Below are positions 5,086 through 58,047 of a DNA stretch of 60,351 nt, piece by piece. Location of the stretch: positions 1 to 60,351 of the IMG/VR virus record IMGVR_UViG_3300034121_000953. One strand, written 5' to 3'. The notes under the pieces are model-generated. The model was not told where the DNA came from. It saw nothing but the letters and a program-made list of their open reading frames with translations, and did no database searches. The DNA is from a virus. Its lineage: Duplodnaviria; Caudoviricetes. Position 1 is the stretch's first letter. Each line of letters begins with the position of its first letter. The position numbers and the translations under genes were made by a program.

Positions 5086-6222
5086 TTACAATTTTTTACT
5101 CACTGAAGAAATACGTTTCAGAAAATCTAATTCGTCTTGTTTGGATCCTTGACCCGAAAGAACTTTACCTCGGTTGGCGTTATCCGCTTCCTTAACACGT
5201 TGTGACTGTGGTTGCCCTGCTTTTGAGGGAATTGATTTCACACTTGTTACGGCTTTACGTTTAACTTCACCGGTCTCCTTAGCTGTCTTTAACTTGCGAT
5301 AGTCATTGATAAATTTAACTACAGTAGGGTCATATATAGACTCTAGTAGCGCCTCAGGAATGCCTTCCTTGATGGCAAATTCACGAACACTTTTGGCAAC
5401 TTTGTCTGAGTAATCGGGGATCAGTTTAGTGATATTTTCCCCATACACTTTCAGTAACGCTTGTTGCTGTTCCGCTTGTTGTTCTTGCAGCTTACCTACA
5501 ATAGCTTTGGTTTTTGCTTCACGGCTATTTCTGGCCTTCCAATAACTTTCTTGTACTTGCTCTCGTTGTTCTTTTAGTTCACGAGCAGTGTAGGTGTCCC
5601 CTTCCTCACGAGCCTTTTCGATATCAGCTGTAAGTTTGTGGTATTGAGATCCAAAAGATGTTTCAACGGCAGTCAGTTCTTCATGAACTACTGACCCCAT
5701 TTCAACTAACTCTTTTAGTTTTTCACTTCTTTCTTGTTCGATCTGTTTCTTCAGTTCGCCAAGTTCCCGACCTTTGTTTGATAGATGCTGGTCAGTAGAG
5801 TAACCCTTGCGGATTTCTTCCAGGGTAACATGCTCTGTCTTGCCATTAATGGTGACAGGAACTTTGTATTCCCAATCAATATCTTCTTCAGCGGGTAGTT
5901 CAGAATCAGGGGTAGACGTATCATCCTTGTTCTTACTATCTTCTGAATCATCTGTTGATTCTTCCTCATCTGTCTTGTTGTCATCAGAGTTGTCGGGAAC
6001 GTCATCGTCCGACTCTGACTCTTGAACTGGGACATCCTCATCCTCTTTTGGTAGAGACCCTTTAAGACCCAACAGTTTTGCAACTGGAGAGTTTTGCATG
6101 ATATCATCTAGGCTGGCTGCTTCGTTCTTTGCACTATACGCACCGTCATCGTTAAAATCAGCACTCGAAATTTCCGAGGCTGGTGTATTGGTAGAGAGTT
6201 GCGCGATATGTGGTAAATCCAT
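5086..6222 (-). CDS. Capsid scaffolding protein
   Basis: Acidic N-terminus, KVPVTINGKTEHVTLEEIRKGYS motif, coiled coil; immediately upstream of the capsid gene. Confidence 0.8.
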   Translation of the reverse strand: MDLPHIAQLSTNTPASEISSADFNDDGAYSAKNEAASLDDIMQNSPVAKLLGLKGSLPKEDEDVPVQESESDDDVPDNSDDNKTDEEESTDDSEDSKNKDDTSTPDSELPAEEDIDWEYKVPVTINGKTEHVTLEEIRKGYSTDQHLSNKGRELGELKKQIEQERSEKLKELVEMGSVVHEELTAVETSFGSQYHKLTADIEKAREEGDTYTARELKEQREQVQESYWKARNSREAKTKAIVGKLQEQQAEQQQALLKVYGENITKLIPDYSDKVAKSVREFAIKEGIPEALLESIYDPTVVKFINDYRKLKTAKETGEVKRKAVTSVKSIPSKAGQPQSQRVKEADNANRGKVLSGQGSKQDELDFLKRISSVSKKL

Positions 6223-6870: not shown

Positions 6871-9120
6871 TTACATTAATTGTTCCGGGGCCATTGCTGG
6901 GCCGGGTTGATTTGGAGGTGGTGTACTCCCTCTTGGTGCTGAAGCATCGCTGATATCAGAAGAAATGACTGCCCGGGCAATACCAAGCAACTCTTCAACT
7001 GATTTATGAGGGGGAAGCTCAACGCCTTCTTTGGCAGCAGCTATATATAGCTTTGCCCATTCTTGTTGTGATTTATCCAAAGAAACCATAAGTTGTTTGG
7101 CGTTATCCTGCATAGCATTCTTAGCCTGAATGTTGGTCAAATCAAGGGTTGCTTGTTTCTGAGTTATATCAAGCATTAATTTTTGTTCTTCCAACTTTTG
7201 TTTCTTTTCTTGGGCTTCAGCTTCGGCTTGCCTGGACTGTTCAGCCTTCTGTTTAAAGTCCTCGGCAGTATAGTCAACCATGTAGTCAAGAGGATCAAGA
7301 TCCATAGCTTCAAGGGTTTTACAGGCGATAGTTACTGCAGCTGCAGGGTTAACTGCTCCTCCAGCACCTGCCTGTTGCAGCGCGGGAATAAGTTTTTCAC
7401 CGACCATCTGCATTTTCTTGATGATGTTACTGTTGCTATTTTCACCTACATCGGCGTCAATATACATAAGCATATTGTCAGGTAGTGTTGATGGATCAAC
7501 AGATTTAAACAAGTTGTTTTGATCATAATACTTTACCGTTTTACCTTTAAGCTTTGTTCTTAAAGTCTTGTAGACTCCGTTAACCAACCGTGTAAATCCT
7601 GTTTCAGAAAATCTACGGGCCATGTATTGAATACGAACTTGAGCAGCTGACTGTGCTCGTGCCATTTTTTCATCGGAGTTACCGGATACATATAAGGTGT
7701 CATTCAAGCCTTGGGCTGCTTTTGACAGGCCTGTGGCTTGCTCTTTGTGTTGCTGTAGCAATTCTAAAAGAGGAACAGTACCTTGACTGATAGTATCAGG
7801 TGTTAATGCAGCAACAGCACCCGTTGGATTACCGTTAGTTGCAATAATCTGCTTGGGCTTCATGTTTTGAAGGGCAGAAAAATCAACTACATTGGGATCA
7901 GCCAACTTAGGAGAATAGTTTGTCAGGTATACATTTTCAACAAAACCACGCATAATAGCCGTAGTAGCCATTGTAGCAGGCCTGATCATATCAGCAACTG
8001 ACAATCCAAAGAATTCGTGTGGAACTTCAAATGGGCAGAGGGTTGCTAGCGGAATGTACTCGCAGTCTTCTTCAAGCAGAATGGTGGAACCAGCGATAAT
8101 AAAGTGTTTAAGTTCAGCGATACCATCGCCGTCCCTATCGACGCGAAGCCAGCATTCAATAACCGTAATCTGACGGTTCGCTTCAGATGGAAATAGCTCA
8201 CGGCTGTTACCTCCGAGCCAATACTCTTCGCCGACCAAGCGTTTTCTGGCTGCTTGTTCTTCTGTATACTTGGTTGCCCAATCATAACTGCCATCTCCAA
8301 TTTGATCCCAATCAATATCTGCTGCAATATCGGGAAAGAATTTACGAACCTCAGATCGGGTCATATCAATCTGAATACCTACAAATGCTGCATCATCTAG
8401 TGAGTGAGCATCCCGTGTAATACGGAAGCATTCAGGGTGTACATTCTTGATGAGAATACGGGTCTTGTTGTGCTTACGTTTTAGACGCACATCCTTGTAG
8501 ACCGTTGCATACTCAGCATTACCTGTTTCTTGATTGGTTGTCAGTTCTTGTTCGTATTTAAGTTTACCAATTACTTCAATCTCATCATCTGAGAGTAAAA
8601 GATCAAGGTTTTCCTGTGAAATTGAGTCATATTCTTCAAAAGAATAATCAAAATCTTCAATAAATTCCCATCTAACAATACTGTTTTTCCACAGTAGAGC
8701 TGATTTTACCCACGTATTTAGGATCTCCCATCCATTATTCTGTTTAAAAATAGTATAGTTTACCAGATCAGAAGCTACTTTAGCATTGTGAAAATCAGAT
8801 GGTGCTGTACCTACGGGTACAAATCTGGCCAGTTTATTGTTGTTAAACATCAGTTCAGCAATAATGGCAAGGTAACCCTCAATAGCCTCTACTGTATCTG
8901 ATGAAACAATCTGAGAAACCCCTTGAGGTGTCAGATGAAACTGCGGAATCATACCGTATTCGTAGGTAGCCTTCTGCCTTTCTCGTGCAAGGTCAGAACT
9001 ATTTAAGAAATCACCAACAGAGTTCATTACACCCTGTTCAATCATGGCAAGGAGCTCTTCGTCTCCTACTACTTCTTTAAACCTGTCAGTAAATCTGACT
9101 ACATTATTAGTTGTTCCCAT
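6871..9120 (-). CDS. Portal protein
   Basis: ~750 aa; SQIVSSDTVEAIE, DLVNY, WVKSALL, ECWLRVDRDGDGIAE, PHEFFGLSVAD; downstream of terminase. ATG at 9120 has an AAAGG RBS. Confidence 0.9.
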   Translation of the reverse strand: MGTTNNVVRFTDRFKEVVGDEELLAMIEQGVMNSVGDFLNSSDLARERQKATYEYGMIPQFHLTPQGVSQIVSSDTVEAIEGYLAIIAELMFNNNKLARFVPVGTAPSDFHNAKVASDLVNYTIFKQNNGWEILNTWVKSALLWKNSIVRWEFIEDFDYSFEEYDSISQENLDLLLSDDEIEVIGKLKYEQELTTNQETGNAEYATVYKDVRLKRKHNKTRILIKNVHPECFRITRDAHSLDDAAFVGIQIDMTRSEVRKFFPDIAADIDWDQIGDGSYDWATKYTEEQAARKRLVGEEYWLGGNSRELFPSEANRQITVIECWLRVDRDGDGIAELKHFIIAGSTILLEEDCEYIPLATLCPFEVPHEFFGLSVADMIRPATMATTAIMRGFVENVYLTNYSPKLADPNVVDFSALQNMKPKQIIATNGNPTGAVAALTPDTISQGTVPLLELLQQHKEQATGLSKAAQGLNDTLYVSGNSDEKMARAQSAAQVRIQYMARRFSETGFTRLVNGVYKTLRTKLKGKTVKYYDQNNLFKSVDPSTLPDNMLMYIDADVGENSNSNIIKKMQMVGEKLIPALQQAGAGGAVNPAAAVTIACKTLEAMDLDPLDYMVDYTAEDFKQKAEQSRQAEAEAQEKKQKLEEQKLMLDITQKQATLDLTNIQAKNAMQDNAKQLMVSLDKSQQEWAKLYIAAAKEGVELPPHKSVEELLGIARAVISSDISDASAPRGSTPPPNQPGPAMAPEQLM

Positions 9121-9224
9121 TGTTAGCCTTTCTTTCAATCAATCAAGCCAACAATGGCTATATATTAGTGTAACTACTTCTTCCACCATGAGTTACCAAC
9201 AGTTGACACAAGGGAAATTTATTT

Positions 9225-9241
9225 CTATTAGGTACCGACTA
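9225..9241 (-). promoter_or_regulatory. Putative phage RNAP promoter TAGTCGGTACCTAATAG, upstream of portal
   Basis: Copy of a 17-bp motif seen 8 times, always at gene boundaries. Confidence 0.7.
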
Positions 9242-9259
9242 AAATAGAAGGAACTCCGA

Positions 9260-9415
9260 CTAAAATAACTTAGTTTGTTCACCACGAATAGGGAAATTTT
9301 TGGGAATTTTCTCACCAATCTTTTCTTGTGGGTTAACTAGTTTATTTTCTGGTCGGGTTTTGACCAAACCTTGAAGTTGTTTCCGTTCTTCGGGGGTCAT
9401 TTTTGTATTAATCAT
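9260..9415 (-). CDS. Small hypothetical protein (51 aa)
   Basis: MINTKMTPEERKQLQ...TKLF*, read manually; below the ORF-track cutoff. Confidence 0.5.
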   Translation of the reverse strand: MINTKMTPEERKQLQGLVKTRPENKLVNPQEKIGEKIPKNFPIRGEQTKLF

Positions 9416-9422
9416 TTATTTC

Positions 9423-9683
9423 TTACCATTTAACTTTGTTAGCCCAATAAGCAGCTGACAACGGCCCCCGGGCAATGTCGTCTGCCATTCGAGCTTTAAA
9501 AGCGTCACTTCGTTTTGAACCATCAGGGCTACCTTCAGTTCCTTGTTGACCAAATCTGATAGTCTTAATAGTATCACCACTTTTAGCAACAACAATATGA
9601 CTCTTGGTGGGATGGTCGGGTGTCTTTTTAGGTTTATTAAACCCGGATACACCAGCTCTCTCTAGTCTTGAATCTTTTTCCAT
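9423..9683 (-). CDS. Small basic phage protein
   Basis: KPKKTPDHPTKSHIVVAK...IRFGQQG...SAAYWANKVKW, a motif set common near phage packaging genes. Confidence 0.7.
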   Translation of the reverse strand: MEKDSRLERAGVSGFNKPKKTPDHPTKSHIVVAKSGDTIKTIRFGQQGTEGSPDGSKRSDAFKARMADDIARGPLSAAYWANKVKW

Positions 9684-9832
9684 TATTTTTTCGCAGTCTT
9701 AGCAGAATCTTTGAAGGCTTTGTCAGTGGGTGCGCCTTTAGTACCCGGTTTTCTCATTTTTTCTTTGGAACCTTCTTCAATACGTTTTTTCTTGGCATGA
9801 ATGTTATCATACAACCCCGGTTTATTAGCCAT
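9683..9832 (-). CDS. Small basic protein (49 aa)
   Basis: MANKPGLYDNIHAKKKRIEEGSKEKMRKPGTKGAPTDKAFKDSAKTAKK*; AAGGA RBS, coupled to the next gene. Confidence 0.65.
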   Translation of the reverse strand: MANKPGLYDNIHAKKKRIEEGSKEKMRKPGTKGAPTDKAFKDSAKTAKK

Positions 9833-9842
9833 AGTATTTCCT

Positions 9843-11480
9843 TTACAACCACTTTGTTTCTATTTGTTGAAATGAACCCATCTTTTGTGAGAAAGGTACA
9901 CTGTTTGTTGTTAATCTGTCGCCATGTGTCCTGATAACTTCAAGAACAATGGCTAGAGCTATCACTGTATCATCATTATACCCGGAAGAAGCATTAGTTT
10001 TACCATTATCCGTGGATACATAGTTCATAAGCTCACCAATAATTGTCCGAGAAGGAATCAGGATCTCTTCCTGCTCAATAGCATTCTTTAAAAATCCAAT
10101 AATAGCCGGTTTACTTGAGGAGGTAGTCCTCCACCCAATACGGTTACCCTCTTCCTTGGATACATTAGCCATCTTTGTCTGATAATACATGTTGACATAG
10201 TTCATCTGGGTAAGTCTGTTGAGAGTAGCAATTCCCATTGAGTTCGATTCCACAGCAAGTAATGCGTTATTGTAGTAACGACCCAAATAAAACAGAAGAT
10301 CGCCAAACTGACTGGGATCAATAGTGTTATTCCTGTAAACAGCACATACCTCCTTCTTTGCATTCATAACCACACATGATGAGTAGTCTTTGCTGACACC
10401 AAGGGATACATCAGCTCCTATGGCAAATGAATCTTCAAAAGTAGGATACTTAAATATTTCAATTGAACCTTGTCGGGCATCTTCCATCATACGAGATGTA
10501 AAGTTAAACTCTCTGTGGGCAAGAATAGGTTGTGGAATCAATTGAGATAACTTCTCAAGATTAAATACATTAGATCCTGAAACAAGAAAAGCTTCTTCCC
10601 ATGTGGAAGGGTACTCTTGTCTGAACTTATCAACACCACTCTCTGCAATCTTAAGCCTTCTCCAGTACAATTGGTCATCATTTAATAAGTGTCTGGTGAC
10701 AAGTATTTCTTCTTCAGATGTTCTTTCAAAACCATCAGGTGAGCTTCGACTGTACTCAGGCATAAGAAACCACGGAACAAAAATAGGTATATAATCATTC
10801 TCCCCGGCAATAGCGCCTAGCCACAGCCTGTGAAATTCATTACCAATGCCATTAGCCGTGGACTCAAGAATAACTTCTGTGCCGGGAGCTTCGGAGATAC
10901 CCTGAAATAATCCTGAGAGAATCTTGGTGTCATGACCCCAGAATGCTACCTCTGAAAGGTGACAAATAGTGGGAGTCTGTCCTCGACCTGCTTCTGGAGC
11001 GCCTGCTGTAAAGAGCCTGTACCCGGAATCATTGTGCAGGAATTGAATCTCTTTTGCATTAGACTTTTTGAACTCTGGCCTGAAGGCTGGATCCATGTAG
11101 TCAATAATGTTACGGGACATTGTGAATAGTGCATCAGAAGTGGCTGCATCATGTGCCATGACAACTGACTTGTGAAATGGGTTAAGGTATGCTTTCCAGT
11201 AGACTCTGGATGTGGTGAATGTGGAAAGGCCCATCTGTCGTGCTTTGAGAATGATAGCTCTGACTTTACCCTGTTCCTTTAATTGTTTCTCAATAGCTGT
11301 ATTTACAATATGTTGTGCTGCATTGAAGTTAAAAGGTAGGAACCCCTTGGAAGAATCCTTGGGGAGAATTTTGATCTGTTCTTTGGCAAATAGCTCGAAG
11401 TCGTTTCGATATTCATCAAGCTTGGCTCTTTTCTTCAGTTCTCTGAGTGCCTTTAGCTTTGTACCATTGTCTATGGTCAT
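9843..11480 (-). CDS. terL: Terminase large subunit
   Basis: ILKARQMGLST Walker A, HLSEVAFW Walker B, ESTANG motif, IGADVS and DDTVIALAI nuclease motifs. Confidence 0.95.
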   Translation of the reverse strand: MTIDNGTKLKALRELKKRAKLDEYRNDFELFAKEQIKILPKDSSKGFLPFNFNAAQHIVNTAIEKQLKEQGKVRAIILKARQMGLSTFTTSRVYWKAYLNPFHKSVVMAHDAATSDALFTMSRNIIDYMDPAFRPEFKKSNAKEIQFLHNDSGYRLFTAGAPEAGRGQTPTICHLSEVAFWGHDTKILSGLFQGISEAPGTEVILESTANGIGNEFHRLWLGAIAGENDYIPIFVPWFLMPEYSRSSPDGFERTSEEEILVTRHLLNDDQLYWRRLKIAESGVDKFRQEYPSTWEEAFLVSGSNVFNLEKLSQLIPQPILAHREFNFTSRMMEDARQGSIEIFKYPTFEDSFAIGADVSLGVSKDYSSCVVMNAKKEVCAVYRNNTIDPSQFGDLLFYLGRYYNNALLAVESNSMGIATLNRLTQMNYVNMYYQTKMANVSKEEGNRIGWRTTSSSKPAIIGFLKNAIEQEEILIPSRTIIGELMNYVSTDNGKTNASSGYNDDTVIALAIVLEVIRTHGDRLTTNSVPFSQKMGSFQQIETKWL

Positions 11481-11595
11481 GAGTTGTTTGTCCTTGTGTC
11501 CTTATTGGTTATCTATTTACCTGATAACATTGATCGGGCTATATCTGCTGCGAACGCTGTGAAGGGGGGGTCTATCATGTATGTCCCTTCGTAAT

Positions 11596-12093
11596 TTATT
11601 TGTGTAATTTTTTACTTTCAGCTATTTCTCTTGGAACAAAAAATTCTTTATCTTGACGTCTTGAAAATTCCTTTGCCGGGTGTCCTTCAGGTAATTTTGA
11701 TATACGCATTTGTTCTGCTTCTTTTGAGGGAATTTTAACTTTATAAAGGCTTCCCCCTTTTTGAACATCATCAAGATACCATTTAGCCTCTGCTAAGTCA
11801 TCAGTAAACCATCGACCTGTGGCGTCTACTGTAGCTTTATATTCTGGAGTGCTGCGCATCCACTCAGATACTTTTGGATTAGCAATACTTGGAGCTTCTG
11901 CTCTGTATAGCGTAGTCATTGGTTGTGTAGCTGCTTTTACTAATCCTATTGCTGGACGTGCAAGAGGGGCTAAGACAGCTTCAGGGTAAGAACCTTCAAG
12001 AGCTTGACGTTGTTCTAAATATTTACGGTAATCAGGATTATTCATGTCGGATTGCCTCTGTAATACGCTGGTAAATGCTTTTTCTCCGGACAT
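11596..12093 (-). CDS. Hypothetical protein, possible ADP-ribosyltransferase-like fold
   Basis: 165 aa with AAGGAG RBS; TLYRAE...GRWFTDDLAEAKWY...LYKVKI...EFFVP pattern. Fold call is tentative. Confidence 0.55.
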   Translation of the reverse strand: MSGEKAFTSVLQRQSDMNNPDYRKYLEQRQALEGSYPEAVLAPLARPAIGLVKAATQPMTTLYRAEAPSIANPKVSEWMRSTPEYKATVDATGRWFTDDLAEAKWYLDDVQKGGSLYKVKIPSKEAEQMRISKLPEGHPAKEFSRRQDKEFFVPREIAESKKLHK

Positions 12094-12191
12094 GATGCTC
12101 CTTAGTTTTATAAAAAATTATAATAAATTTTCTGGGAGGAAAACTTGTTGTAATTTTCTTAGGGTGGCCCTGCCTGTGTGAGAAAGAATCA

Positions 12192-12813
12192 GGTGTTGTT
12201 GTTGGCTTCCCCTGTTTTCCTTGCGTGGCCCCCTTGTTTCCCTTGGGCGGTCTGCTGGTGCGGTGGTCGCTGTTCCTTCCTTGCGTCTCTCCTTTGGGTC
12301 TGCTCGCGTTTGGGTTGGTTCTTCCTTGTTCTCGTTGGGCGTCTTGCCCGGTCTTTGCGGTTCGTCCGCTTGTGAGGTGTCTTGTGGTTTCTTCTTCTGT
12401 TCTCTCTGGCGTTGCTGCGTCCTTGGTTCGCTCTTTCGCTGTTCCTGGCGCTGCTGCCGCTGCGGTTGCTGGGCCGGTTGCCTTTGCCTGTCCTCTGGTT
12501 TCGGGTTCTGGTGTTCCTGCTTTGCTTCGTGTTGGTTCTCGCGTTGTCCCGTCTTCTTCGTTCCTGCCTGTTTGTTCTGGCGTGGTTTCGTCGCTGTCGT
12601 GGGACGCTCGTCGCTTGGCTGTTGTGGCTGTGGTTGGTGGGCGCTCGTTGGTGTGCTTGGCTTCGGGGCTTGGCGGTGTTGGGTCTCCTGCTGCTGTGGC
12701 GCTGGTTGCTGCCCTTCGTGTTGCCCGTGCCTCCGGTGCGGTGGTTGACGTCTGGGGTGCTCCTGGTTCTTCCGGTCGTGTGTGCCCTGGCTACTTCTGT
12801 GGCGTGTCGTTGT
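12192..12813 (+). other. Adenine-depleted tract (4 A in 622 nt on the + strand)
   Basis: Direct count: A only at 12375, 12604, 12748 and 12793. Confidence 0.97.
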
Positions 12814-12815
12814 AA
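12384..12815 (+). CDS. A-free early gene (143 aa), probable paralog of 13799-14128
   Basis: GAGGTG Shine-Dalgarno at 12374-12379, GTG start at 12384, TAA stop; the three internal A's are the middle bases of Asp, Asp and Tyr codons in this frame. Confidence 0.75.
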   Translation: MVSSSVLSGVAASLVRSFAVPGAAAAAVAGPVAFACPLVSGSGVPALLRVGSRVVPSSSFLPVCSGVVSSLSWDARRLAVVAVVGGRSLVCLASGLGGVGSPAAVALVAALRVARASGAVVDVWGAPGSSGRVCPGYFCGVSL

Positions 12816-12885
12816 GGTCTTTCCCGGTTGGCTCTTTTGCTGGTGCCTCCCGAGAGCGTCTTTGCGTTCTACCTTCTCGGTTATG

Positions 12886-12915
12886 AGAGACCATTGCAAG
12901 GGGTATGTTCCTTGC
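12886..12915 (+). promoter_or_regulatory. Early hairpin motif, copy 1
   Basis: AGAGACC ATT GCAAGG GGTATGTT CCTTGC, just upstream of the ATG at 12927. Confidence 0.6.
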
Positions 12916-12926
12916 TGGAGACTGTT

Positions 12927-13427
12927 ATGGCTAAACGCTACAACCGCATTTGTACCCTCACCAGCCGCCGTACTAACGGTAACGCTGGCCCTTGGGGCAT
13001 TCAGATTGGCCACCCTTGTGGGTTCTTGGCTACGTCCCGGCACCTTTGTTCTCGTCCTGCCTTGTCTAAGGCTGTTGGAGATTTCCTTTTCTCCGATGCC
13101 TCTATGTCCGGTGACTTCGAGGATATGCTGATGATGATGACCGTGTATAAGCTCAAGGTGAGTAAGCGTGTTAAACTTCACCTCAAACAATGGGTGAAGG
13201 CTGGTTGCCCTACATGGAAGAAGAACAGTGCTTTAAGCGCTGGTTTGGTTAAGCTTTACACAGGTAAGTTTGATCGTGAAGTCTCCACATACTACGATGT
13301 GCGTGATGTGAGTAGCAAGTTCTGGAATGCGGCTGACGGTGAATTACCGGTTGATTGTGATGGTGAACCCGTTATCAACTTTGATGAGACCGGTGCTCTG
13401 ATTACTGTGGAGGTGAACAATGTCTAA
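12927..13427 (+). CDS. Early hypothetical protein
   Basis: GGAG RBS and ATG at 12927 (MAKRYNRIC...), in frame with track ORF 12828-13427. Confidence 0.7.
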   Translation: MAKRYNRICTLTSRRTNGNAGPWGIQIGHPCGFLATSRHLCSRPALSKAVGDFLFSDASMSGDFEDMLMMMTVYKLKVSKRVKLHLKQWVKAGCPTWKKNSALSAGLVKLYTGKFDREVSTYYDVRDVSSKFWNAADGELPVDCDGEPVINFDETGALITVEVNNV

Positions 13428-13605
13428 GCTGTTCCACGTTGCCATCGGGATTGTATGGTTCTACATGGCAATGTCCTTGCTAGAGCTGTTCGAGCAGGGC
13501 AACTTTGGCCTGTTCCATGTAGCAGCGATGTTTTTGTGTGGGGGTGTAGCCTTCACACAGGTGAAGATACTGCTGGAAGAAGCAGCAGATACAATGAGGT
13601 ATTAA
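13420..13605 (+). CDS. Small membrane protein (two hydrophobic segments)
   Basis: GGAGGTG RBS; 61 aa, hydrophobic. Confidence 0.65.
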   Translation: MSKLFHVAIGIVWFYMAMSLLELFEQGNFGLFHVAAMFLCGGVAFTQVKILLEEAADTMRY

Positions 13606-13606
13606 T

Positions 13607-13714
13607 ATGTACTACGTATACAATCGCTTGACCGATAAGCTAGTCCTTAAAACTACAGAGATATGGCTGCTCAAGCTATACTCTCCATTGCTCTACGAAG
13701 TGGTGATTCTTTAA
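13607..13714 (+). CDS. Small hypothetical protein (35 aa)
   Basis: GAGGT RBS; MYYVYNRLTDKLVLK...VVIL*. Confidence 0.45.
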   Translation: MYYVYNRLTDKLVLKTTEIWLLKLYSPLLYEVVIL

Positions 13715-13739
13715 ATCCACCTGAGCTCTGCTCATTAAC

Positions 13740-13768
13740 AGAGACCTGCCACGGGTATGTACATGGCA
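13740..13768 (+). promoter_or_regulatory. Early hairpin motif, copy 2
   Basis: AGAGACC TGCCACG GGTATGTA CATGGCA, upstream of the ATG at 13799. Confidence 0.6.
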
Positions 13769-13798
13769 CCTTGTTCCCTAACTTAATGGAGTCCTATC

Positions 13799-14128
13799 AT
13801 GGCTACAGCAAACAAACCTTTCGTTCCTTCCTTCAAAGTATCTGCTAAAATGGAAGTACCATTTATCACCAATAATCCTAATATGGGTGATCGTGTCAGT
13901 CAACCAACTAAGATCACTGATCTTTCTTTTAATGAGGTGACAAGGTCTATTGAGGTGACCTGCGATGATCGTCGTAAGCGTCAGTGCCGTATTGATCGTC
14001 TGTCTAATGACAAGATGGTCAAGGATCTTCAGAAAGCTCTGCAAGAAGCGTATGACAAGAAAGTATCCGTGCAGTTTGTAGCTGCAGGTGGTGCTGATGC
14101 CAACGTGTGGTTCTACCGGGTGATGTAA
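13799..14128 (+). CDS. Early hypothetical protein (109 aa), normal-composition paralog of the A-free gene
   Basis: GGAG RBS; aligns by eye with the 12384-12815 product. Confidence 0.75.
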   Translation: MATANKPFVPSFKVSAKMEVPFITNNPNMGDRVSQPTKITDLSFNEVTRSIEVTCDDRRKRQCRIDRLSNDKMVKDLQKALQEAYDKKVSVQFVAAGGADANVWFYRVM

Positions 14129-14156
14129 TCAATTGCTCTTCTCGGGCATACAACGG

Positions 14157-14187
14157 AGAGACCATGACAGAGGGTAAGTACTCTGTC
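14157..14187 (+). promoter_or_regulatory. Early hairpin motif, copy 3
   Basis: AGAGACC AT GACAGAG GGTAAGTA CTCTGTC, upstream of the ATG at 14222. Confidence 0.6.
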
Positions 14188-14221
14188 GGCCCTTCAATTC
14201 AAATCAAAAGAGAAACCAATC

Positions 14222-14470
14222 ATGAAACAATATCTTTTATTAATGCCTCTTAAAGCATCAGACCTTAGCATAGAAAAAGAAGAGTTTGCTGAAGCAGCAG
14301 CTGAATGGGGAGCCAAACTGGTGGTATCAAAAACCATAACAGGAGCTACAACTAGATTCCTGATTACTCAAACACTTGAAGCGATGGCTCAACTGTGTTC
14401 TAACTGTGACCTTGAAGGGACAGTTGTAGAGGTAACAGGGATATACGATCAGGAGATTGAAGAAGAGTAA
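14222..14470 (+). CDS. Early hypothetical protein
   Basis: 82-aa ORF with an acidic C-terminus. Confidence 0.65.
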   Translation: MKQYLLLMPLKASDLSIEKEEFAEAAAEWGAKLVVSKTITGATTRFLITQTLEAMAQLCSNCDLEGTVVEVTGIYDQEIEEE

Positions 14471-15152
14471 CTAAGTATATTATATAATATACCTCATGAA
14501 TCACTCTTTAAGGTTATCTTTATTTGTTTATTCTTTTAAAGATAAATAAATAAAAGAATTAACTTTAAAGGGTAACTACCAAGTATTACTCAGAGCCCAC
14601 TAACTAAGCCCACTCATGAATACATTATATAATTATATATAGGAGTGGGGACTGGAAGATACCATCTAGACATGTTTTCCGGATTAAACCGAGTTGTAGT
14701 CCCCACTACTACAACAACATCATCTAGACTGTGCTACACTGAGCACTGGTCAAACTGTCACCTGCAAATTACCTCTCTATTAGGTACCGACTAGAATAGG
14801 AGGAACCCCGACTAAATAGTCTCCTATTAGGTACCGACTAGAATTACTAGAAAGGATTACACTAAGCATCACTTCTCTATTAGGTACCGGCTAGAATTAC
14901 TGGTCAATTGTCATCCAAATGATGTTTGGGCGACAATTAGGCGGTAACTGTCACAAAAAATGACAGTTGGTAGTCGCTTTTTGTGTGTGCTTGTCGTGAA
15001 TGAGCAATTACCAGTCGCAACTACACCAAGCACCACTCCAAGCTACACCAAGCACCACTCACAATGTCACATCTAAGCAATTAAAGGTCACAACTACACT
15101 AAATGAAAATTACACCAAAACTAACCCAATAAATCAAACATAACCAAATCAT
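14471..15152. other. Non-coding control region, candidate replication origin
   Basis: No ORF; AT-rich imperfect inverted repeat at ~14505-14570, GTGGGGACT/AGTCCCCAC inverted repeat at 14646-14706, three promoter motifs, tandem CTACACCAAGCACCACTC at ~15021-15060. Confidence 0.55.
14777..14893 (-). promoter_or_regulatory. Cluster of three putative phage RNAP promoters
   Basis: Motif copies at 14777-14793, 14824-14840 and 14877-14893, all pointing left. Confidence 0.7.
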
Positions 15153-15371
15153 ATGAAATACTTATTCCAAGACAAAAACACCCAAGTACTGTCGCCAATA
15201 GCTGGCAGTGTATTTCTGCCTAACCATGCTGAAATTGAATACTCATTCTCACCATCAAGAATATATACCACACTAAATATCGATGGCTGCTGCTTCTCAA
15301 ATGCTGATATCGATGATCTAAAAGAATTACTGACTGCCCTTCAAACACAACTAGTAACAGAACATCCATGA
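15153..15371 (+). CDS. Hypothetical protein
   Basis: First ORF of a tightly packed small-gene array. Confidence 0.6.
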   Translation: MKYLFQDKNTQVLSPIAGSVFLPNHAEIEYSFSPSRIYTTLNIDGCCFSNADIDDLKELLTALQTQLVTEHP

Positions 15372-15679
15372 AATCATCTGAAATACTAACAGCAGTAAAA
15401 CCACTATTATGGGATGGTAAACAACCTAATCGCGAAATAGAAAAAAGATTTATATGCTATGCCGTAAAAACAGTATGCTATGATAACCCTCTGCTATATG
15501 AAAAACAACAAATCATATTAGAACACATCACAACATTACTAGAAGGACACTACGTATTTGAACAATGGTTACGATCAAAAGGAATTAAAAAACCAGATAA
15601 CAGCCCAAAAAAACTGATGAAAACAAGACAAATGTGGGTCAATAATATGATCAAATATTTCAAATCAAAAGGTGACTAA
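15368..15679 (+). CDS. Hypothetical protein
   Basis: ATGA overlap with the previous ORF; 103 aa. Confidence 0.65.
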   Translation: MKSSEILTAVKPLLWDGKQPNREIEKRFICYAVKTVCYDNPLLYEKQQIILEHITTLLEGHYVFEQWLRSKGIKKPDNSPKKLMKTRQMWVNNMIKYFKSKGD

Positions 15680-15680
15680 T

Positions 15681-15857
15681 ATGTTATACACACTGGTACT
15701 CTACATGATTCTTCAACTAGGCCCAAACGCAGCAATAATGACAACAGCCTACATTCCTGATATTCCCTCAGAAGAATACTGTGAATACCTTGGTACGCTA
15801 TTCGAGTCAGAACATCTCTGCGTACCTTCAAAAAGTCTCAACCTAAACAACATCTAA
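15681..15857 (+). CDS. Small hypothetical protein with hydrophobic N-terminus
   Basis: AAGGTG RBS, ATG at 15681. Confidence 0.5.
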   Translation: MLYTLVLYMILQLGPNAAIMTTAYIPDIPSEEYCEYLGTLFESEHLCVPSKSLNLNNI

Positions 15858-15858
15858 T

Positions 15859-16182
15859 ATGTCCAAAATAATCATATCAACACAAATATATGAAAACTAT
15901 GCAGCACATGACTGGGATGGTGTCAACCCAGAAGTATGCCCTGAATACTGGAAATCAAAAGGAGGTAATGACTACGCACTACTCAACTTCAAAGGTAATG
16001 AAGATGATGCCACCAAACAAGTAATGGCTGTCAGAGAACAAATAGAAACAGACAACTATGCCTACCGTGAGCACATCATCAACTACCAAACCGTAGATGA
16101 TGACTACATAACAGAATACGAAACATATCAAATGAAATATGACGGTTCTATCAAATACCCAACCAAAGTAATCTCACTATGA
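15859..16182 (+). CDS. Hypothetical phage protein
   Basis: IISTQIYENYAAHDWDG...YWKSKGG; 107 aa. Confidence 0.7.
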   Translation: MSKIIISTQIYENYAAHDWDGVNPEVCPEYWKSKGGNDYALLNFKGNEDDATKQVMAVREQIETDNYAYREHIINYQTVDDDYITEYETYQMKYDGSIKYPTKVISL

Positions 16183-23661: not shown

Positions 23662-23882
23662 TGTTTAAACAAGCAAATACGTACATTGAAGGGGGTTATG
23701 CCCGGTGTACTGGATTCGGCACCCGTATCTACGCAATCCTCAAAATCAATACCGACGGTACAATGATCATGAAGCGAGTAGGTGACACTAATCGCGGCAC
23801 ATTCAAATTCCACAAAACAAAGAAAACATTCCTGTTCACAAGCAAAAACCACTTCTGGTACCAACCCGTAGCTCCTGTATGA
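23658..23882 (+). CDS. Hypothetical protein
   Basis: ATGA overlap. Confidence 0.55.
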   Translation: MMFKQANTYIEGGYARCTGFGTRIYAILKINTDGTMIMKRVGDTNRGTFKFHKTKKTFLFTSKNHFWYQPVAPV

Positions 23883-24310
23883 AACACTTCCCACACAACC
23901 AACATGTATACCTCGCAGGAGGTATTGAAGGTCTCACCTATGAACAAGCAACAAGCTGGCGTCTAGAAGCAGAAACTGAACTCAACTCCTTCGATATCGA
24001 TTGCCTTAATCCATGCCGCAGAGTGTCATTTGTAAGCAGCAAATCAAGGCATGCTGATGCTCGTATCTGGAAAGCTGACCTGCAAGACATTGCCTACTCC
24101 TCAGTCATCCTTGCCAACCTAAGCGAACACCTGCCCGGTAAAAAATGGGGTACTGTAGCAGAAGTAGCTCATGCTCACACCAAAAACAAAATCATTATTG
24201 TGCTGATGGATGAACACCAATTCCACCATCCATTCATCACCCAATATGCCACAGAAATTCATTACACAATTGATGATGCTGTAGAAGCAGTAAAAGAATA
24301 TTTCCTGTGA
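23879..24310 (+). CDS. Nucleoside 2-deoxyribosyltransferase-like protein
   Basis: VYLAGGI...SWR...LNP...DLQDI..S.VILANL...GTVAEVAHA pattern. Confidence 0.75.
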   Translation: MKHFPHNQHVYLAGGIEGLTYEQATSWRLEAETELNSFDIDCLNPCRRVSFVSSKSRHADARIWKADLQDIAYSSVILANLSEHLPGKKWGTVAEVAHAHTKNKIIIVLMDEHQFHHPFITQYATEIHYTIDDAVEAVKEYFL

Positions 24311-24545: not shown

Positions 24546-24833
24546 ATGCCCTATATCAACATCGAAAAACGTATTAACATGGCAGAAGGAATCCTGCCAA
24601 TAAATGCAGGAGAACTCAACTACTGTATCACTCTAACATTAATAGAGTATGTGGCTCTGAAAAAACTGAGCTACCAAACTATAAATGATATCATGGGTGC
24701 TCTTGAAGGAGCAAAAGCAGAATTCTACCGCCGAGTAGCTGCTCCTTACGAAGACAATAAAATCACAGAAAATGGAGATGTATATTGTGACCGATTTTTA
24801 CGACCAACAATTCCTGAAAAAATTCTTCCCTGA
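24546..24833 (+). CDS. Hypothetical phage protein
   Basis: MPYI...AGELNYCIT...GALEGAKAEFYRRVAAPYEDNKITENGDVY. Confidence 0.7.
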   Translation: MPYINIEKRINMAEGILPINAGELNYCITLTLIEYVALKKLSYQTINDIMGALEGAKAEFYRRVAAPYEDNKITENGDVYCDRFLRPTIPEKILP

Positions 24834-24843
24834 CAAACCACGG

Positions 24844-25302
24844 ATGTCAACTGAAATGAATAAGCAAATGGAGCGAGATATCAAAACTGAAATTGATCAA
24901 TACCTTGAAATGCAAGAAATGAATGATGGTATAAGCAAAACCTTAGTAGACACAAACCTAAAGACATTTGCAGCAGCAAATAAACCACGCCTGTCTGATA
25001 TCCCTCCCGTAGCATTACTGGCTTTAGGTGCTGCAATGTCTGACGGTGAGAAAAAATATGGCAGGTTCAACTGGCGTGAAACAGGAAGTACCTCCAGCGT
25101 ATTCTACGATGCAATGATGCGTCACCTGCTTGATTGGTTCAACGGTGAAGACTTCGCTCATGACAGCAAAGTACACCACCTAGCTCACGTTATGGCATCC
25201 TGCGCTATTCTACTTGACAGTGAACTGCACACCTGTCTCAAAGATGATCGAGGAGACTACGGTACTGTTGTCCGTAAACCCGAAACATGGAAAGAAGTAT
25301 GA
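24844..25302 (+). CDS. dATP/dGTP diphosphohydrolase-domain protein (DUF5664-like)
   Basis: KPRLSDIP...GEKKYGRFNWR...AMMRHL..W..GED...SKVHHLAH. Start position uncertain. Confidence 0.75.
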   Translation: MSTEMNKQMERDIKTEIDQYLEMQEMNDGISKTLVDTNLKTFAAANKPRLSDIPPVALLALGAAMSDGEKKYGRFNWRETGSTSSVFYDAMMRHLLDWFNGEDFAHDSKVHHLAHVMASCAILLDSELHTCLKDDRGDYGTVVRKPETWKEV

Positions 25303-26809: not shown

Positions 26810-26983
26810 ATGCAAAAAGCAACCAAAACAATGATCACCTTAGTTATTGAACTTAACTATTGTCCGGAAGAAGATACACTAAAATTCTTCATTGATGATG
26901 CGTTCGATAAACTACTGCATAAGAATGAATCAGTGCAAATCGTATCAATAGACCACCTATATGAGGAACTCCCCTTAAAATGA
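26810..26983 (+). CDS. Small hypothetical protein (57 aa)
   Basis: MQKATKTMITLVIELNY...; AGGA RBS; ATGA overlap with the deaminase gene. Confidence 0.55.
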   Translation: MQKATKTMITLVIELNYCPEEDTLKFFIDDAFDKLLHKNESVQIVSIDHLYEELPLK

Positions 26984-27444
26984 AAACACAGGCAGACTGG
27001 GATACATTCTATATGAGAATGGCCGATCTAATATCCCAACAAAGCTATGCACAAGACAGAAAAGTAGGTGCCCTCATCGTAAAGAACGGTAACATCATTT
27101 CGTTCTCTTATAACGGTACTCTACCCGGACAACAAAATTGTACGGTAAATGCCTCAGGCAGAACGCTTGACAGCGTCTTACATGCAGAAACACAGGCTAT
27201 TGCCAAGGTAGCTCGATCAACTCAGAGTACTGAAGGGGCAACCCTCTACAGCACCCTAAGCCCCTGTATCGAGTGTGCCAAGCTGATAGCACAAACAGGC
27301 ATATACCGAGTTGTGTACCGAGACGTTTACAAATACACAGAAGGAATTGATTTCCTGAAAAAAGCTGATGTCCTTGTAAATGAACCGGATAACCATAACC
27401 GGCTAATATCCCCGGAAACATTAAGAAGTACAGGACTCCTCTGA
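26980..27444 (+). CDS. dCMP deaminase
   Basis: KVGALIV, YNG, HAE and SPCIECAK zinc motifs. Confidence 0.9.
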   Translation: MKTQADWDTFYMRMADLISQQSYAQDRKVGALIVKNGNIISFSYNGTLPGQQNCTVNASGRTLDSVLHAETQAIAKVARSTQSTEGATLYSTLSPCIECAKLIAQTGIYRVVYRDVYKYTEGIDFLKKADVLVNEPDNHNRLISPETLRSTGLL

Positions 27445-57184: not shown

Positions 57185-57424
57185 AACGTTGACCCCATGA
57201 CCTCTTAGAAAGTCAAGAAGAACATACCCGGCACCAATAAAGAATGCCCATACCAAGCCAATTAAAGTTTTCTCTATGATTGCTTTACGTAGCTCAATTG
57301 ACTGAGCTTCTTTTTGTATAGCCATCTTGACCCATCGCTCTTCGTCTTCAGATAGTGTAGAATTTCTTTTGGTAAGTGCTTCAACAATACCGGCTATAAG
57401 TTCTTTGCGTTCTTCTGATTGCAT
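57182..57424 (-). CDS. Small membrane protein (lysis-associated?)
   Basis: 80 aa with a C-terminal hydrophobic helix; adjacent to the endolysin. Confidence 0.55.
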   Translation of the reverse strand: MQSEERKELIAGIVEALTKRNSTLSEDEERWVKMAIQKEAQSIELRKAIIEKTLIGLVWAFFIGAGYVLLDFLRGHGVNV

Positions 57425-57891: not shown

Positions 57892-58046
57892 TAATCCCTC
57901 CCTTTTTTGTTGAAGAGCTCAAACAGTGTTCTAATTTTTTCTTCCATAACTGCTACTCTCAAGTCAAGCTTAGACAGGACTATAATCAGAGTAATTAATG
58001 CCAAAAGAATAGGCCAACCTTTAGTTAACAAATCAAATAACTCCAT
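57891..58046 (-). CDS. Small membrane protein (51 aa)
   Basis: MELFDLLTKGWPILLALITLIIVLSKLDLRVAVMEEKIRTLFELFNKKGGD*; read manually. Confidence 0.6.
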   Translation of the reverse strand: MELFDLLTKGWPILLALITLIIVLSKLDLRVAVMEEKIRTLFELFNKKGRD

Positions 58047-58047
58047 A

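Follow-up and report, generated by a model that had tools for sequence, protein, structure and literature searches.

A group of aquatic phages, one of which is cultured, has a leader and first gene or genes of the early region that are nearly free of adenine on the coding strand. In the window, that is, the whole 60,351-nt stretch of phage DNA that was analysed, the plus strand between 12192 and 12813 carries only four adenines in 622 nt, and a recount of this AT-rich genome placed them at 12375, 12604, 12748 and 12793, the same positions as in the initial annotation. Scanning the 60,351 nt in 600-nt windows gave a mean of 178 adenines and a first percentile of 62, with the genome-wide minimum of 3 falling on the tract (at 12192); the corresponding minima for C, G and T were 92, 72 and 105. 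The tract is composed of A-free runs of 183 nt (12192-12374), 228 nt (12376-12603), 143 nt and 44 nt, with a further 37-nt run past the stop codon (12816-12852), and the longest A-free run elsewhere in the window is 31 nt. At a genomic A content of 29.7%, the chance of a 228-nt A-free run is about 0.703^228, or roughly 1e-35. T, G and C make up 39%, 34% and 26% of the tract compared with 29%, 20% and 21% of the genome.

Coverage of the phage in metagenomes was judged from Logan contigs (24 runs), and contigs of three other lake-metagenome runs reproduce the tract with 0, 1 and 1 differences. These covering contigs (X3, 11000-13204; X4, 11000-13439; X8, 12092-13929) come from independent lake-metagenome assemblies, by which an assembly artefact is ruled out as the source of the tract. 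The tract is not a tandem repeat and has short internal direct repeats only. Both a hyper-structured and a structure-free RNA were rejected, since the MFE of the tract (-0.30 to -0.32 per nt) is that of random sequence of equal composition (-0.29 per nt); a sequence of normal composition at the same GC content gives -0.36 per nt. No DNA match to the tract or to positions 9000-16000 was present in the 'phages' collection.

The tract holds a protein-coding gene of 143 aa on the plus strand (12384-12815), with a GTG start, a TAA stop and three adenines in 429 coding nt. Its ribosome-binding site is a GAGG at 12374-12377, followed after a 6-nt spacing by the GTG at 12384, and the relatives have GGAGG or GGGG and then ATG or GTG at the aligned place. 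As had been noticed earlier, the adenine at 12375 belongs to this Shine-Dalgarno sequence, and the other three are the middle bases of GAC (12604, D74), GAC (12748, D122) and TAC (12793, Y137) codons in a single frame, so that the protein is written in F, L, S, C, W, P, R, V, A and G plus two Asp and one Tyr. The further claim that every remaining A is obligatory went too far: D74, D122 and Y137 all lie outside the invariant or at least 90%-conserved columns of the family alignment, in which homologues have S, Q, E, V, W or R at the position of D122, and four of them have F at that of Y137.

There is very little doubt that the 143-aa ORF is a real gene in the frame originally proposed. Compared with the relative L002, 14 of the 19 nucleotide differences fall at codon position 3 (p=4e-4), the changed codons comprise 12 synonymous and 4 non-synonymous ones, and the only indel within the ORF is of 3 nt; third positions also account for 64 of 133 differences from L028 (p=3e-4) and 86 of 201 from L046. 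A search of metagenomic data yielded 25 homologues at E<=1e-3, whose family alignment has 20 invariant columns. AlphaFold2 predicted a disordered N-terminus and a confident fold (pLDDT above 90) across most of residues 40-143, modelled as a beta-barrel plus helix with an OB-fold-like look. The best Foldseek matches in PDB and BFVD were OB-fold B subunits (E 0.014, target-normalised TM 0.66-0.72), with none at E<=0.001 and none below E 0.1 in BFVD, and the OB-fold likeness of the model probably reflects only a generic fold resemblance. Neither the protein nor its leader-extended ORF matched any Pfam or PHROG family, and a search of the protein atlas returned scores of about 0.8 only, which is chance level.

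It is extremely improbable that the tract is instead a non-coding compositional element, or that minus-strand ORFs are the real genes there, as annotated for gp72 of the cultured Roseobacter phage CRP-7. All six frames are indeed open, trivially because of the missing base, and the GenBank record of CRP-7 places a minus-strand CDS across the tract of that phage. The two minus-strand ORFs of the window, of 258 aa (12118-12894) and 333 aa (12189-13190, overlapping the real plus-strand gene at 12927-13427), are artefacts, because a strand without T cannot hold TAA, TAG or TGA. Sites that vary between the window and L002 occupy second codon positions of the 258-aa frame and first positions of the 333-aa frame, whereas the third-position bias and the synonymous excess are seen in the plus frame only. 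Indels of 56 nt and 1 nt shift the minus-strand frames, breaking that of the 258-aa ORF, and neither ORF has a family match in Pfam or PHROG, whereas the plus-strand product has the conserved homologues and confident fold described above. In addition, the G.U pairs of a hairpin in the leader would be A-C mismatches in the opposite sense.

Upstream of the tract, the divergent intergenic region (12094-12191, given on the plus strand) holds a conserved promoter-like motif, CTGTGTGAGAAAGAATCA, at 12174-12191 of the window, and depletion of A sets in 0-3 nt past it. The motif, TGTGTG(N)AAA(A)GAATCA, precedes the tract in the window and its relatives; its pattern matched in 38 of 81 sequences (a few of them off-target), and 32 matches were followed by no more than 8 adenines in the next 120 nt. 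The mean number of adenines per 20 nt is 7.3 in the motif and then 1.0, 0.5 and 0.1, and the ~100-200 nt upstream of the motif have an ordinary A content, with A/T palindromes present. Because a simple sigma-70 scan detected no plus-strand promoter before the tract, we only infer that the motif acts as a promoter. A 20-nt motif, TATTAGGTACCGRCTAGAAT, was set aside as an early promoter because its nine copies point both ways relative to the genes.

The 5' leader extends from 12192 to 12383 (plus strand), with its single A at 12375, and its description as A-free was borne out over 183 nt. It is non-coding, since the indels that distinguish it from the leaders of L002 and L003 (the 56 nt and 1 nt mentioned above, both confined to the leader) are not multiples of 3. 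Leaders of the relatives are ~150-225 nt long and their avoidance of A is near-absolute, with relaxed examples containing several adenines in L043, L006, L008, L024 and L038. They have sequence blocks in common and a 6+5-bp hairpin with many G.U pairs, in which 89.7% of cells are paired compared with 32-66% when the hairpin is slid, and covariation is 0.54 compared with 0.25 in shuffles (0 of 500 as high); as the hairpin was proposed from single-sequence folds and then counted, in an alignment of the leaders of relatives that leaves out the divergent variant of the window itself, these statistics lean toward their source sequences. With RNAalifold, the conserved 5' block of the leader had no consensus fold and the 3' block had only an invariant GGCGC/GCGCT stem, and Rfam cmscan (E<=1, 11900-13100) returned one chance-level match, outside the leader.

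Relatives were collected with TerL as anchor (144 in viral_contigs, 80 kept), and A-poor tracts at the same position were found in 35 of the 37 loci at TerL identities of at least 74%, in six of eight at 70-71% and in none of 14 at 66-68%. Among 30 non-redundant loci, the mean number of adenines per 50 nt is successively 2, 0, 2, 3, 4, 6, 7, 8, 7, 9 and 10, and it returns to ~16-17 after ~1 kb. Relatives carry different first genes, all of which are A-poor, and within one first-gene family the number of adenines is higher farther from the motif (19 in L046 vs 3 in the window). The avoidance of A is thus, with good confidence, tied to position and not to the gene. Such a positional gradient, common to unrelated first genes across the clade including CRP-7, lay beyond the view of the initial annotation.

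Downstream of the gene, the 3' flank and intergenic spacer (12816-12926, plus strand) begins with the 37-nt A-free run and contains a conserved block, GAGAGCGTCTTTGC (12852-12865, plus strand), which is kept in L002 and L003 and is repeated before early genes of L002. The second early gene (166 aa from ATG; 12927-13427, plus strand) is still A-poor and part of the gradient: the counts per 50 nt following the tract are 7, 11, 11, 5, 5 and 10, with ~16-17 further on. It is ~80% identical in nucleotides to its counterpart in L002, many of the changes being apparently silent, and neither this gene nor the neighbouring small genes matched Pfam or PHROG. An RNA library gave a 187-nt contig at 12871-13057, which lies beside the 143-aa gene and is no proof of transcription.

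Substitutions within the tract nearly all stay A-free, as expected from the earlier claim that selection keeps it so: A is involved in 0 of 19 differences from L002 and 3 of 133 from L028, and for the family B first gene in 0 of 12, 0 of 27 and 1 of 86. These comparisons point to a lasting constraint at the nucleic-acid level, under which the sequence itself is free to diverge among T, G and C. The constraint is not translational, because the non-coding leader and the 3' flank are its strictest parts. The restricted protein alphabet would fit a proposal in which the first proteins lack Lys, Glu, Gln, Asn, Thr, Ile, His and Met, which would allow their synthesis after attack by anticodon nucleases or depletion of those tRNAs, and many known anticodon nucleases do hit tRNAs reading NAN codons. 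Such independence of tRNAs, which had been suggested at the outset, is nevertheless highly implausible as the main cause: untranslated sequence is the most strictly purged (leaders of 183 nt in the window and 224 nt in CRP-7, and 37 nt of 3' flank), third positions are A-free too, though in four-fold boxes the tRNA family would be unchanged, and the Asp and Tyr codons that are retained are among known nuclease targets.

The adenines that remain belong to ATG, Asp, Glu and Tyr codons and to stop codons, and GTG replaces the ATG start in several relatives. This pattern could also be left by a strand-specific, promoter-anchored and adenine-directed hypermutation, by a deaminase that attacks the exposed non-template strand or by self-retrohoming like that of a diversity-generating retroelement (DGR), that erases all adenines unheld by purifying selection; the gradient from the promoter recalls transcription-linked hypermutation, and the enriched residues V, A, G, R, C and S are the expected products of A-to-G changes. 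However, A has been replaced by T and C as well as by G, and purging nearly all residues with A-containing codons from a conserved fold needs a mutation rate comparable to selection coefficients. A DGR was rejected, there being no reverse transcriptase (PF00078 had no match at E<=1 in the 60-kb genome and matched 4 of 14 control genomes) and no template repeat (with the tract as query, a permissive blastn of the remaining genome gave at best 26 nt at E 0.3), and the sole deaminase found is an ordinary dCMP deaminase. The trait moreover persists across hosts as far apart as marine Roseobacter and bacteria of lakes, and such a mutational origin has little chance of being right.

The tract had been placed where two transcription arms diverge, and the gene order on both strands agrees. 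The minus-strand arm comprises a 165-aa ORF, the terminase large subunit (TerL), portal, scaffold and major capsid protein, and the plus-strand arm lies opposite, with the phage RNA polymerase gene (32670-34880) ~25 kb down it. TerL (9843-11480, minus strand) was recognized by PHROG 2 (E 2e-27) and by weak matches to Pfam Terminase_6N and 6C, and the portal is of SU10 type (PF23899, E 2e-128); the three giant proteins of the late arm had no PHROG or Pfam match, virion RNA polymerase families included. The 165-aa ORF (11596-12093, minus strand), the first late-arm gene here, has AAGGAG before its ATG and no Pfam or PHROG match; it is accessory and is missing from L002 and L003, in which TerL directly adjoins the intergenic region. 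The depth of X8 changes twofold at 12092, at the boundary between presence and absence of this gene, and the step is read as strain mixing rather than a terminal repeat; contigs bridge the junction region, and relatives flagged with terminal repeats are cut at differing positions. The genome also encodes proteins of nucleotide metabolism, namely a dCMP deaminase, a deoxyribosyltransferase-like protein and a MazZ-like N-terminal domain (24772-25302).

The closest cultured relative is CRP-7 (MK613349), which likewise has two arms, with three giant proteins ending the late one, and an RNA polymerase 32% identical to that of the window. Its A-free tract, at 57384-58069, consists of a leader of 224 nt that has no A at all and, after it, an A-poor ORF whose 128-aa product resembles the family of the 143-aa protein (family A) with an hhalign probability of 83% (E 8.6e-6). 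The 5' leader block TTTGGGTT.G.CCC...CCCCCC is shared as well, whereas the upstream motif differs. In the GenBank record, the minus-strand ORF gp72 spans the tract and the plus-strand ORF is left unannotated. In the portion of the CRP-7 paper covered here (PMC6918029), adenine, skew, promoter and terminal repeat are not mentioned, and no description of the feature was found by a literature search that included this paper and was confined to openly accessible article texts.

CRP-7 was isolated from surface seawater (PMC6918029), and the window and its covering contigs come from lake metagenomes. A surface-water origin, together with the strand specificity of the feature and the genes of nucleotide metabolism, would accord with a benefit at the template strand: a template without T for the first transcript would offer no thymine photoproducts and no modified or ADP-ribosylated T to block the polymerase. 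This explanation is very unlikely, although the avoidance of thymine dimers had been among the original suggestions. The context Y-A-Y, in which the template T is unable to dimerise, is not enriched among residual adenines of the first 400 nt (0.34 observed vs 0.43 expected), GG (template CC) is abundant, and the strand exposed in the transcription bubble is the T-rich one. Shielding ~1% of the genome would also help little unless the first gene is needed before repair. There was no PurZ and, among the scanned proteins, a set that leaves out many small ORFs, no recognised T-hypermodification gene; a Z (2-aminoadenine) genome was rejected on the PurZ search (PF00709, 0 matches here and matches in 14 of 14 control genomes), the MazZ-like N-terminal domain alone being present.

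We favour evasion of adenine-dependent host nucleases in the first moments of infection as the explanation of the tract, with a probability of about 0.5. The tract would be the head of an early transcription unit, composed of the promoter-like motif, a ~190-nt leader and the 143-aa gene, whose sense strand is nearly A-free. The first DNA or transcript exposed in the cell might then be an unusable substrate for host enzymes dependent on adenine in this strand or in both. At the DNA level these could be Type I and Type III restriction enzymes of the m6A type and those with A/T-containing palindromic Type II sites, and at the RNA level A-dependent endoribonucleases or toxins. The protection would last until the first proteins, probably anti-defence ones, are made; the variable gene content of the first position may be compatible with an anti-defence hotspot. 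In a broader form, to which we give somewhat less than even odds, the clade would be one of aquatic podoviruses in which a three-letter (T, G, C) first kilobase acts as a generic, sequence-independent shield against m6A-type restriction, A/T palindromes and A-dependent RNases, and in which entire protein families have adapted to fold with an alphabet of about eleven amino acids.

DNA as the target within the nuclease-evasion reading is possible but doubtful. An A-free strand abolishes every A/T-containing palindrome, and in 14 strict tracts the densities of 6-mer and 4-mer palindromes are 1.37 and 15.7 per kb compared with 13.3 and 55.6 per kb in the rest of the genome. Palindromes made of G and C are also scarce, with 46 occurrences of GGCC, CCGG and CGCG in these tracts vs 87.8 +/- 8.6 in dinucleotide shuffles (0 of 500 as low), whereas elsewhere in the genome the three are not depleted (O/E 0.85-1.19). 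The palindrome O/E climbs with distance (0.76, 0.74, 0.82, 0.82, 0.89 and 0.94), and the upstream late-arm control is already at 0.86; GCGC is over-represented (O/E 1.5). Restriction avoidance, one of the causes first put forward, thus stays viable and draws slight support from palindrome depletion, although that of GC palindromes shrinks when leader and coding parts are split (small counts). The ~100-200 nt upstream of the motif would be unprotected, should that DNA enter first, and the avoidance of sites alone may not make each A costly enough for a folded protein to forgo K, E, N, T, I, Q, H and M.

The sharp onset at the motif suits a transcript-linked cause at least as well as one linked to a DNA end. 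The early suggestion of an mRNA that resists RNases remains viable because the tract starts sharply at the promoter motif, and nothing was found in favour of its companion, a message that can be made at low ATP. RNase E-type cleavage needs no A, and RNA as the target of evasion is an unlikely variant of the favoured reading. Transcription itself might also be what is served: an A-free non-template strand paired with a T-free one could hold no -10-like element, and the first kilobase would be spared sigma-dependent promoter-proximal pauses as well as internal promoters, whether sense or antisense, giving a fast, unbroken first transcription that may also pull the genome into the cell. The strand specificity, the start at the motif and the independence of gene identity are consistent with this, as is a decay over hundreds of nt to ~1 kb, which sigma retention would be expected to give, and the plus arm, with its ~25 kb to the phage RNA polymerase gene, needs processive early transcription. 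However, isolated adenines should be harmless under this explanation, because known sigma-dependent pauses need a good -10 match, yet they have been removed even at a cost to protein composition. Ordinary strong promoters show no such purge either, and the motif is not a canonical sigma-70 promoter, so the polymerase that reads it may be other than that of the host; we take the architecture of the window to resemble that of N4-type phages, which inject a polymerase. An effect on transcription as the cause is decidedly unlikely.

Several implications hold whichever mechanism is right. These phages possess natural and conserved proteins, predicted to fold confidently, that are encoded by essentially three nucleotides and draw on about ten amino acids, with Asp, Glu and Tyr as rare additions. 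The purge of one base is positional, anchored at a promoter-like motif, and holds over the deep divergence that separates lake phages from a marine Roseobacter phage, which suggests a strong cost for each single adenine at the very start of infection; we know of no defence or gene-expression model that predicts such a cost. The tract is also an annotation trap, as gene callers put long false ORFs on the T-free strand, extend N-termini upstream into the leader and overlook the real gene, as has happened in the GenBank entry of CRP-7. Since CRP-7 and its host are in culture, the feature is open to experiment. If evasion of nucleases is the true cause, the tract would represent a generic anti-restriction or anti-RNase design that could be copied in synthetic biology and phage engineering; if not, an unknown adenine-directed process would be acting on early phage DNA or RNA.

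Among known systems, the genome layout resembles that of N4-type and phiEco32/SU10-type phages, with an SU10-type portal and, as in the gene order of N4, opposed early and late arms with the giant virion proteins last. The avoidance of A was rejected as a property in common with N4 or phiEco32, the left ends of which are of normal composition (9-22 and 10-25 A per 50 nt, respectively). ALREX elements are reportedly adenine-poor signal-sequence coding regions in eukaryotic mRNAs, with tracts of tens of nt. They resemble the tract as adenine-depleted 5' coding regions that act at the nucleic-acid level and bias the protein to hydrophobic residues, but belong to nuclear export in eukaryotes and are linked to the tract neither by evolution nor by mechanism. 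In DGRs, adenines are likewise the only bases affected, on the RNA-sense strand, whereas here there is no reverse transcriptase or template/variable repeat pair, and A is lost rather than diversified. As means of protecting their leading DNA from restriction, T7 has gene 0.3/Ocr and transcription-coupled entry, and T5 has first-step-transfer DNA without EcoRI sites. As in these two phages, the start of the early region is composed in a way that rids it of restriction sites and is occupied by small, variable early genes, and the palindrome deficit is strongest near the start; in contrast to them, a whole base, and not particular sites, is gone from one strand over 0.15-1 kb, codons included, and the DNA just upstream of the motif is unpurged. 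In T7, all EcoP15I sites are also in one orientation, as a defence against Type III enzymes. Strand asymmetry makes DNA refractory there, and an A-free strand similarly allows A-containing asymmetric sites one way only; the asymmetry of T7 concerns a single recognition sequence throughout the genome, whereas that of the phages described here is generic and local.

The plus strand between 12192 and 12813 holds only four adenines (12375, 12604, 12748 and 12793), as the initial annotation had described and the base count confirms. They divide the tract into A-free runs of 183, 228, 143 and 44 nt, with a further 37 nt past the stop codon, whereas the longest A-free run elsewhere in the 60,351-nt record is 31 nt. 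A sliding count over the whole record gave a minimum of 3 A per 600-nt window against a mean of 178, far beyond chance; the corresponding minima for C, G and T were 92, 72 and 105. The viral contig is rated 98% complete in IMG/VR, and the tract was reproduced in contigs of three further lake-metagenome runs with 0, 1 and 1 differences. These counts and these independent contigs rule out both chance and faulty assembly as the origin of the tract.

The tract was said to lie where two transcription arms diverge, and the gene layout agrees exactly. On its left, the minus strand carries a 165-aa ORF and the genes for the large terminase subunit (TerL), an SU10-type portal, scaffold and major capsid protein, and this late arm, continued across both ends of the contig, also encodes tail proteins and three giant proteins (940, 1398 and 1247 aa). 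On its right, small early ORFs on the plus strand are followed by RNA ligase, and the same arm encodes a Gp2.5-like single-strand-binding protein, DNA ligase, dCMP deaminase (26980-27444), a family A DNA polymerase and exonuclease, primase-helicase, a 736-aa T7-type RNA polymerase and ribonucleotide reductase.

Several other features of the genome were recorded. The 165-aa ORF (11596-12093, minus strand), which is the first late-arm gene in the window and has a good ribosome-binding site, is missing from L002 and L003, two relatives with 96% identical TerL; in one sequencing run (X8), contigs end precisely where it begins and the depth shifts twofold at that point, which we read as strain mixing. 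The minus-strand ORFs at 2-2323 and 58893-60350 are apparently one ORF of ~1,260 aa split by the contig ends, which makes it probable that the record is a circle with an arbitrary opening point. In two relatives flagged with direct terminal repeats, the cuts lie 29 kb and 5.8 kb away from TerL. Amid the late and structural genes is one for a PhoH-like ATPase (56035-56715, minus strand; PF02562, E 1e-53). The plus-strand gene at 24772-25302 has a MazZ-like dATP/dGTP diphosphohydrolase N-terminal domain (PF18909, E 2.7e-25), and a weak deoxyribosyltransferase-like match was found at 23879-24310; there is no PurZ in the genome, and a Z genome is excluded as far as PurZ goes. The 20-nt motif TATTAGGTACCGRCTAGAAT has nine copies in the window with at most three mismatches (0.01 expected by chance), at 9226, 14778, 14825, 14878, 19605, 20101, 26782, 37031 and 57169; three are in tandem (14778-14897) and the rest are intergenic, in both orientations. 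Its core is partly palindromic (GGTACC), so that it could serve as an operator or as a promoter for a phage polymerase; no A-depletion was seen downstream of any of the nine copies. A 187-nt contig from a lake metatranscriptome run (X24) matches 12871-13057 without differences and covers the start of the second early gene, DNA carry-over being possible.

As an A-free strand and its T-free complement both lack stop codons, all six frames are open, and ORF length is therefore no proof of a gene. Relatives were collected through their terminase (144 matches, 80 kept). Compared with L002 and L003, indels of 56 nt and 1 nt are confined to the leader and the sole indel within the ORF is 3 nt; 14 of the 19 ORF differences fall at third positions of the frame opened by GTG at 12384 (p = 4e-4), with 12 synonymous and 4 non-synonymous codons. 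Another relative, L028, shares 64% amino-acid identity over 107 residues, and third positions hold 64 of its 133 differences (p = 3e-4). Minus-strand ORFs of 258 and 333 aa were rejected as artefacts because the varying sites fall on their second or first codon positions. The 143-aa product has 25 unnamed metagenomic homologues, and the family alignment contains 20 invariant columns; N-termini of homologues have been called into the leader and promoter motif (e.g., CVKES). Third-position bias, synonymous excess, indel placement and homologues all bear out the gene in the frame first proposed, and it is extremely improbable that the tract is not a plus-strand gene. AlphaFold2 with the family alignment predicts a beta-barrel and one long helix (pLDDT >90 over most of residues 40-143) behind a disordered N-terminus; OB-fold domains were the nearest in Foldseek at only E 0.014, a likeness of the model that we take as generic and as implying no function.

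All close relatives have the motif TGTGTG(N)AAA(A)GAATCA in plus-arm orientation (12174-12191 in the window). The A-free run starts 0-3 nt past it, and a leader of 150-225 nt with conserved blocks leads to a box (GGAGG or GGGG) and then to the start codon, either ATG or GTG. The gene that follows varies: it belongs to the family of the 143-aa product (family A) in the window, L002/L003, L028 and L046, and to an unrelated family B in L005, L011, L014, L015, L023 and L053; it has normal composition in L007, and encodes small hydrophobic peptides in L029, L031 and L034, while L052 has two A-poor genes after a duplicated leader. Family B is a real gene too, judging from its third-position bias (p 0.004 down to 1.5e-5 in closer pairs). 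Anchored at the motif, 30 non-redundant loci have mean A counts per successive 50 nt of 2, 0, 2, 3, 4, 6, 7, 8, 7, 9, 10, 10, 10, 11, 12, 13 and so on, and the normal 16-17 is regained only past ~1 kb; ahead of the motif the A content is unremarkable (3-5.5 per 20 nt), and after the motif it falls abruptly. Family A genes further from the motif have more A's (19 in L046 versus 3 in the window and 5 in L028), although L005, with family B, is a counter-example. A-avoidance depends on position and is anchored at the promoter-like motif: the sense strand goes without adenine at the start of the early region, throughout a structured leader and the first gene, whatever its identity. What the initial annotation had presented as a single A-free gene is indeed a gene, but the phenomenon is a clade-wide, promoter-anchored rule; related phages carry A-free tracts at the same position, and substitutions there are almost never to A.

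In comparisons within families A and B, divergence is free among T, G and C and almost never goes to A (family B differences involving an A: 0/12, 0/27 and 1/86), and the extra 56 nt of the window's leader are also A-free. An unknown adenine-directed mutator or other mutational cause is very unlikely. Only a DGR-like sink could strip a conserved fold of nearly all its A-codon residues, yet the genome has no reverse transcriptase, no template repeat was found, and the sole deaminase found is the ordinary dCMP deaminase; moreover, the composition of the tract (T 39%, G 34%, C 26%) differs from that expected of an A-to-G sink alone. Given the lack of reverse transcriptase and template repeat and this composition, we attribute the pattern to selection acting on every single A.

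With a probability of about 0.5, this selection would act through evasion of adenine-dependent host nucleases by the first DNA or RNA of infection. In the DNA version, which is tentative, an A-free strand removes each palindrome containing A/T and all sites needing adenine on both strands, leaving asymmetric A-sites in one orientation only. The restriction avoidance proposed initially finds weak backing in palindrome depletion: 6-mer palindromes occur at 1.37 per kb in 14 strict tracts (6,550 nt) versus 13.3 per kb elsewhere in the genome, the palindrome observed/expected ratio (O/E) increases with distance from the motif, and the strongest depletion among the 16 GC tetramers in the tracts is that of GGCC, CCGG and CGCG (46 observed versus 87.8 +/- 8.6 expected), none of which is depleted genome-wide. 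Against it, O/E is already 0.86 in the late-arm control, the GC-palindrome depletion weakens once leader and coding parts are split (GCGC being enriched), and no purge is seen in the DNA immediately before the motif. In the RNA version, itself unlikely, A-dependent RNases or toxins would cut the first mRNA; the sharp start at the motif fits a transcript-linked cause at least as well as an attack on DNA. The abrupt drop also suits a quite improbable cause in transcription, whereby -10-like elements on the non-template strand would pause the polymerase. A template-strand cause has little probability; within the first 400 nt, the Y-A-Y context is not over-represented among the remaining A's (0.34 versus 0.43 expected), which disfavours the earlier suggestion of thymine-dimer avoidance. 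Similarly, tRNA-independent translation, another early proposal, is not the main cause because A-avoidance is strictest in non-coding parts, and a translation-level explanation is highly improbable.

The leader appears to act as plus-sense RNA, as comparison of the relatives suggests. A 6+5-bp hairpin lies 30-65 nt ahead of their start codons; in 15 sequences, 89.7% of cells are paired versus 32-66% with the partner slid by 1-3 columns, and the covariation score is 0.54 versus 0.25 shuffled (0/500 shuffles as high), with derivation from single-sequence folds favouring the hairpin somewhat. This part of the leader is divergent in the window and L002, neither of which was in the alignment. The pairs are often G.U; read in the other sense, these would turn into A-C mismatches. 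The folding energy of the tract is the value given by its composition.

Other leader elements recur. The 5' block TGTTTGGGTTCGCCCC, with CCCCCCT ~20 nt on, is kept in 30 loci from lake phages (window 12192-12260) to the marine phage CRP-7 (27402-27491 of our excerpt L083), and RNAalifold gave no consensus structure for it. In L002 and L003, a ~50-nt element with a short hairpin, ending in GAGCGTCTTTGC, recurs ahead of several early genes (at about 5100-6400 of L002, reverse complement); the window has one exact copy of this 12-mer directly past the tract (12852-12865). In addition, sequences of the form GCTGGTG then G or C recur on the plus strand of leaders in the conserved hairpin region (12255-12262 in the window); they are similar to the E. 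coli Chi octamer, from which the hosts' Chi may differ.

The distribution was surveyed in loci with at least 600 nt upstream of TerL, counting any 100-nt window with <=5 T in TerL orientation. Such windows occur in 35 of 37 loci at TerL identity >=74% (exceptions L006 and L043; 27 of 37 at <=2 T), in 6 of 8 at 70-71% and in 0 of 14 at 66-68%. Relaxed leaders with several A's are found in L008, L024, L038 and L043; L024 also has a 106-nt G-free run (5344-5449) on the TerL strand upstream of TerL.

Full-text searches of freely accessible articles, and of passages in the paper on CRP-7, turned up no description of the feature. An A-free tract of this kind is absent from N4 and phiEco32. Roseobacter phage CRP-7 (MK613349), whose RNA polymerase (32% identity) makes it the closest phage in culture, has the same architecture as the window and an A-free tract at 57384-58069 (plus strand), in which 224 nt without A precede an ATG and a ~128-aa ORF whose A's are in the start codon, Asp/Glu/Lys codons and stop. 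This ORF (L083 27608-27995) is unannotated in GenBank, where the minus-strand CDS gp72 is annotated across the T-free strand of the tract (L083 27271-27966, record 57271-57966); the plus-strand ORF matches family A at an hhalign probability of 83% (E 8.6e-6), a score that compositional bias may inflate. CRP-7 and the lake phages also have in common the 5' leader block TTTGGGTT.G.CCC and, after it, a run of C5-7.
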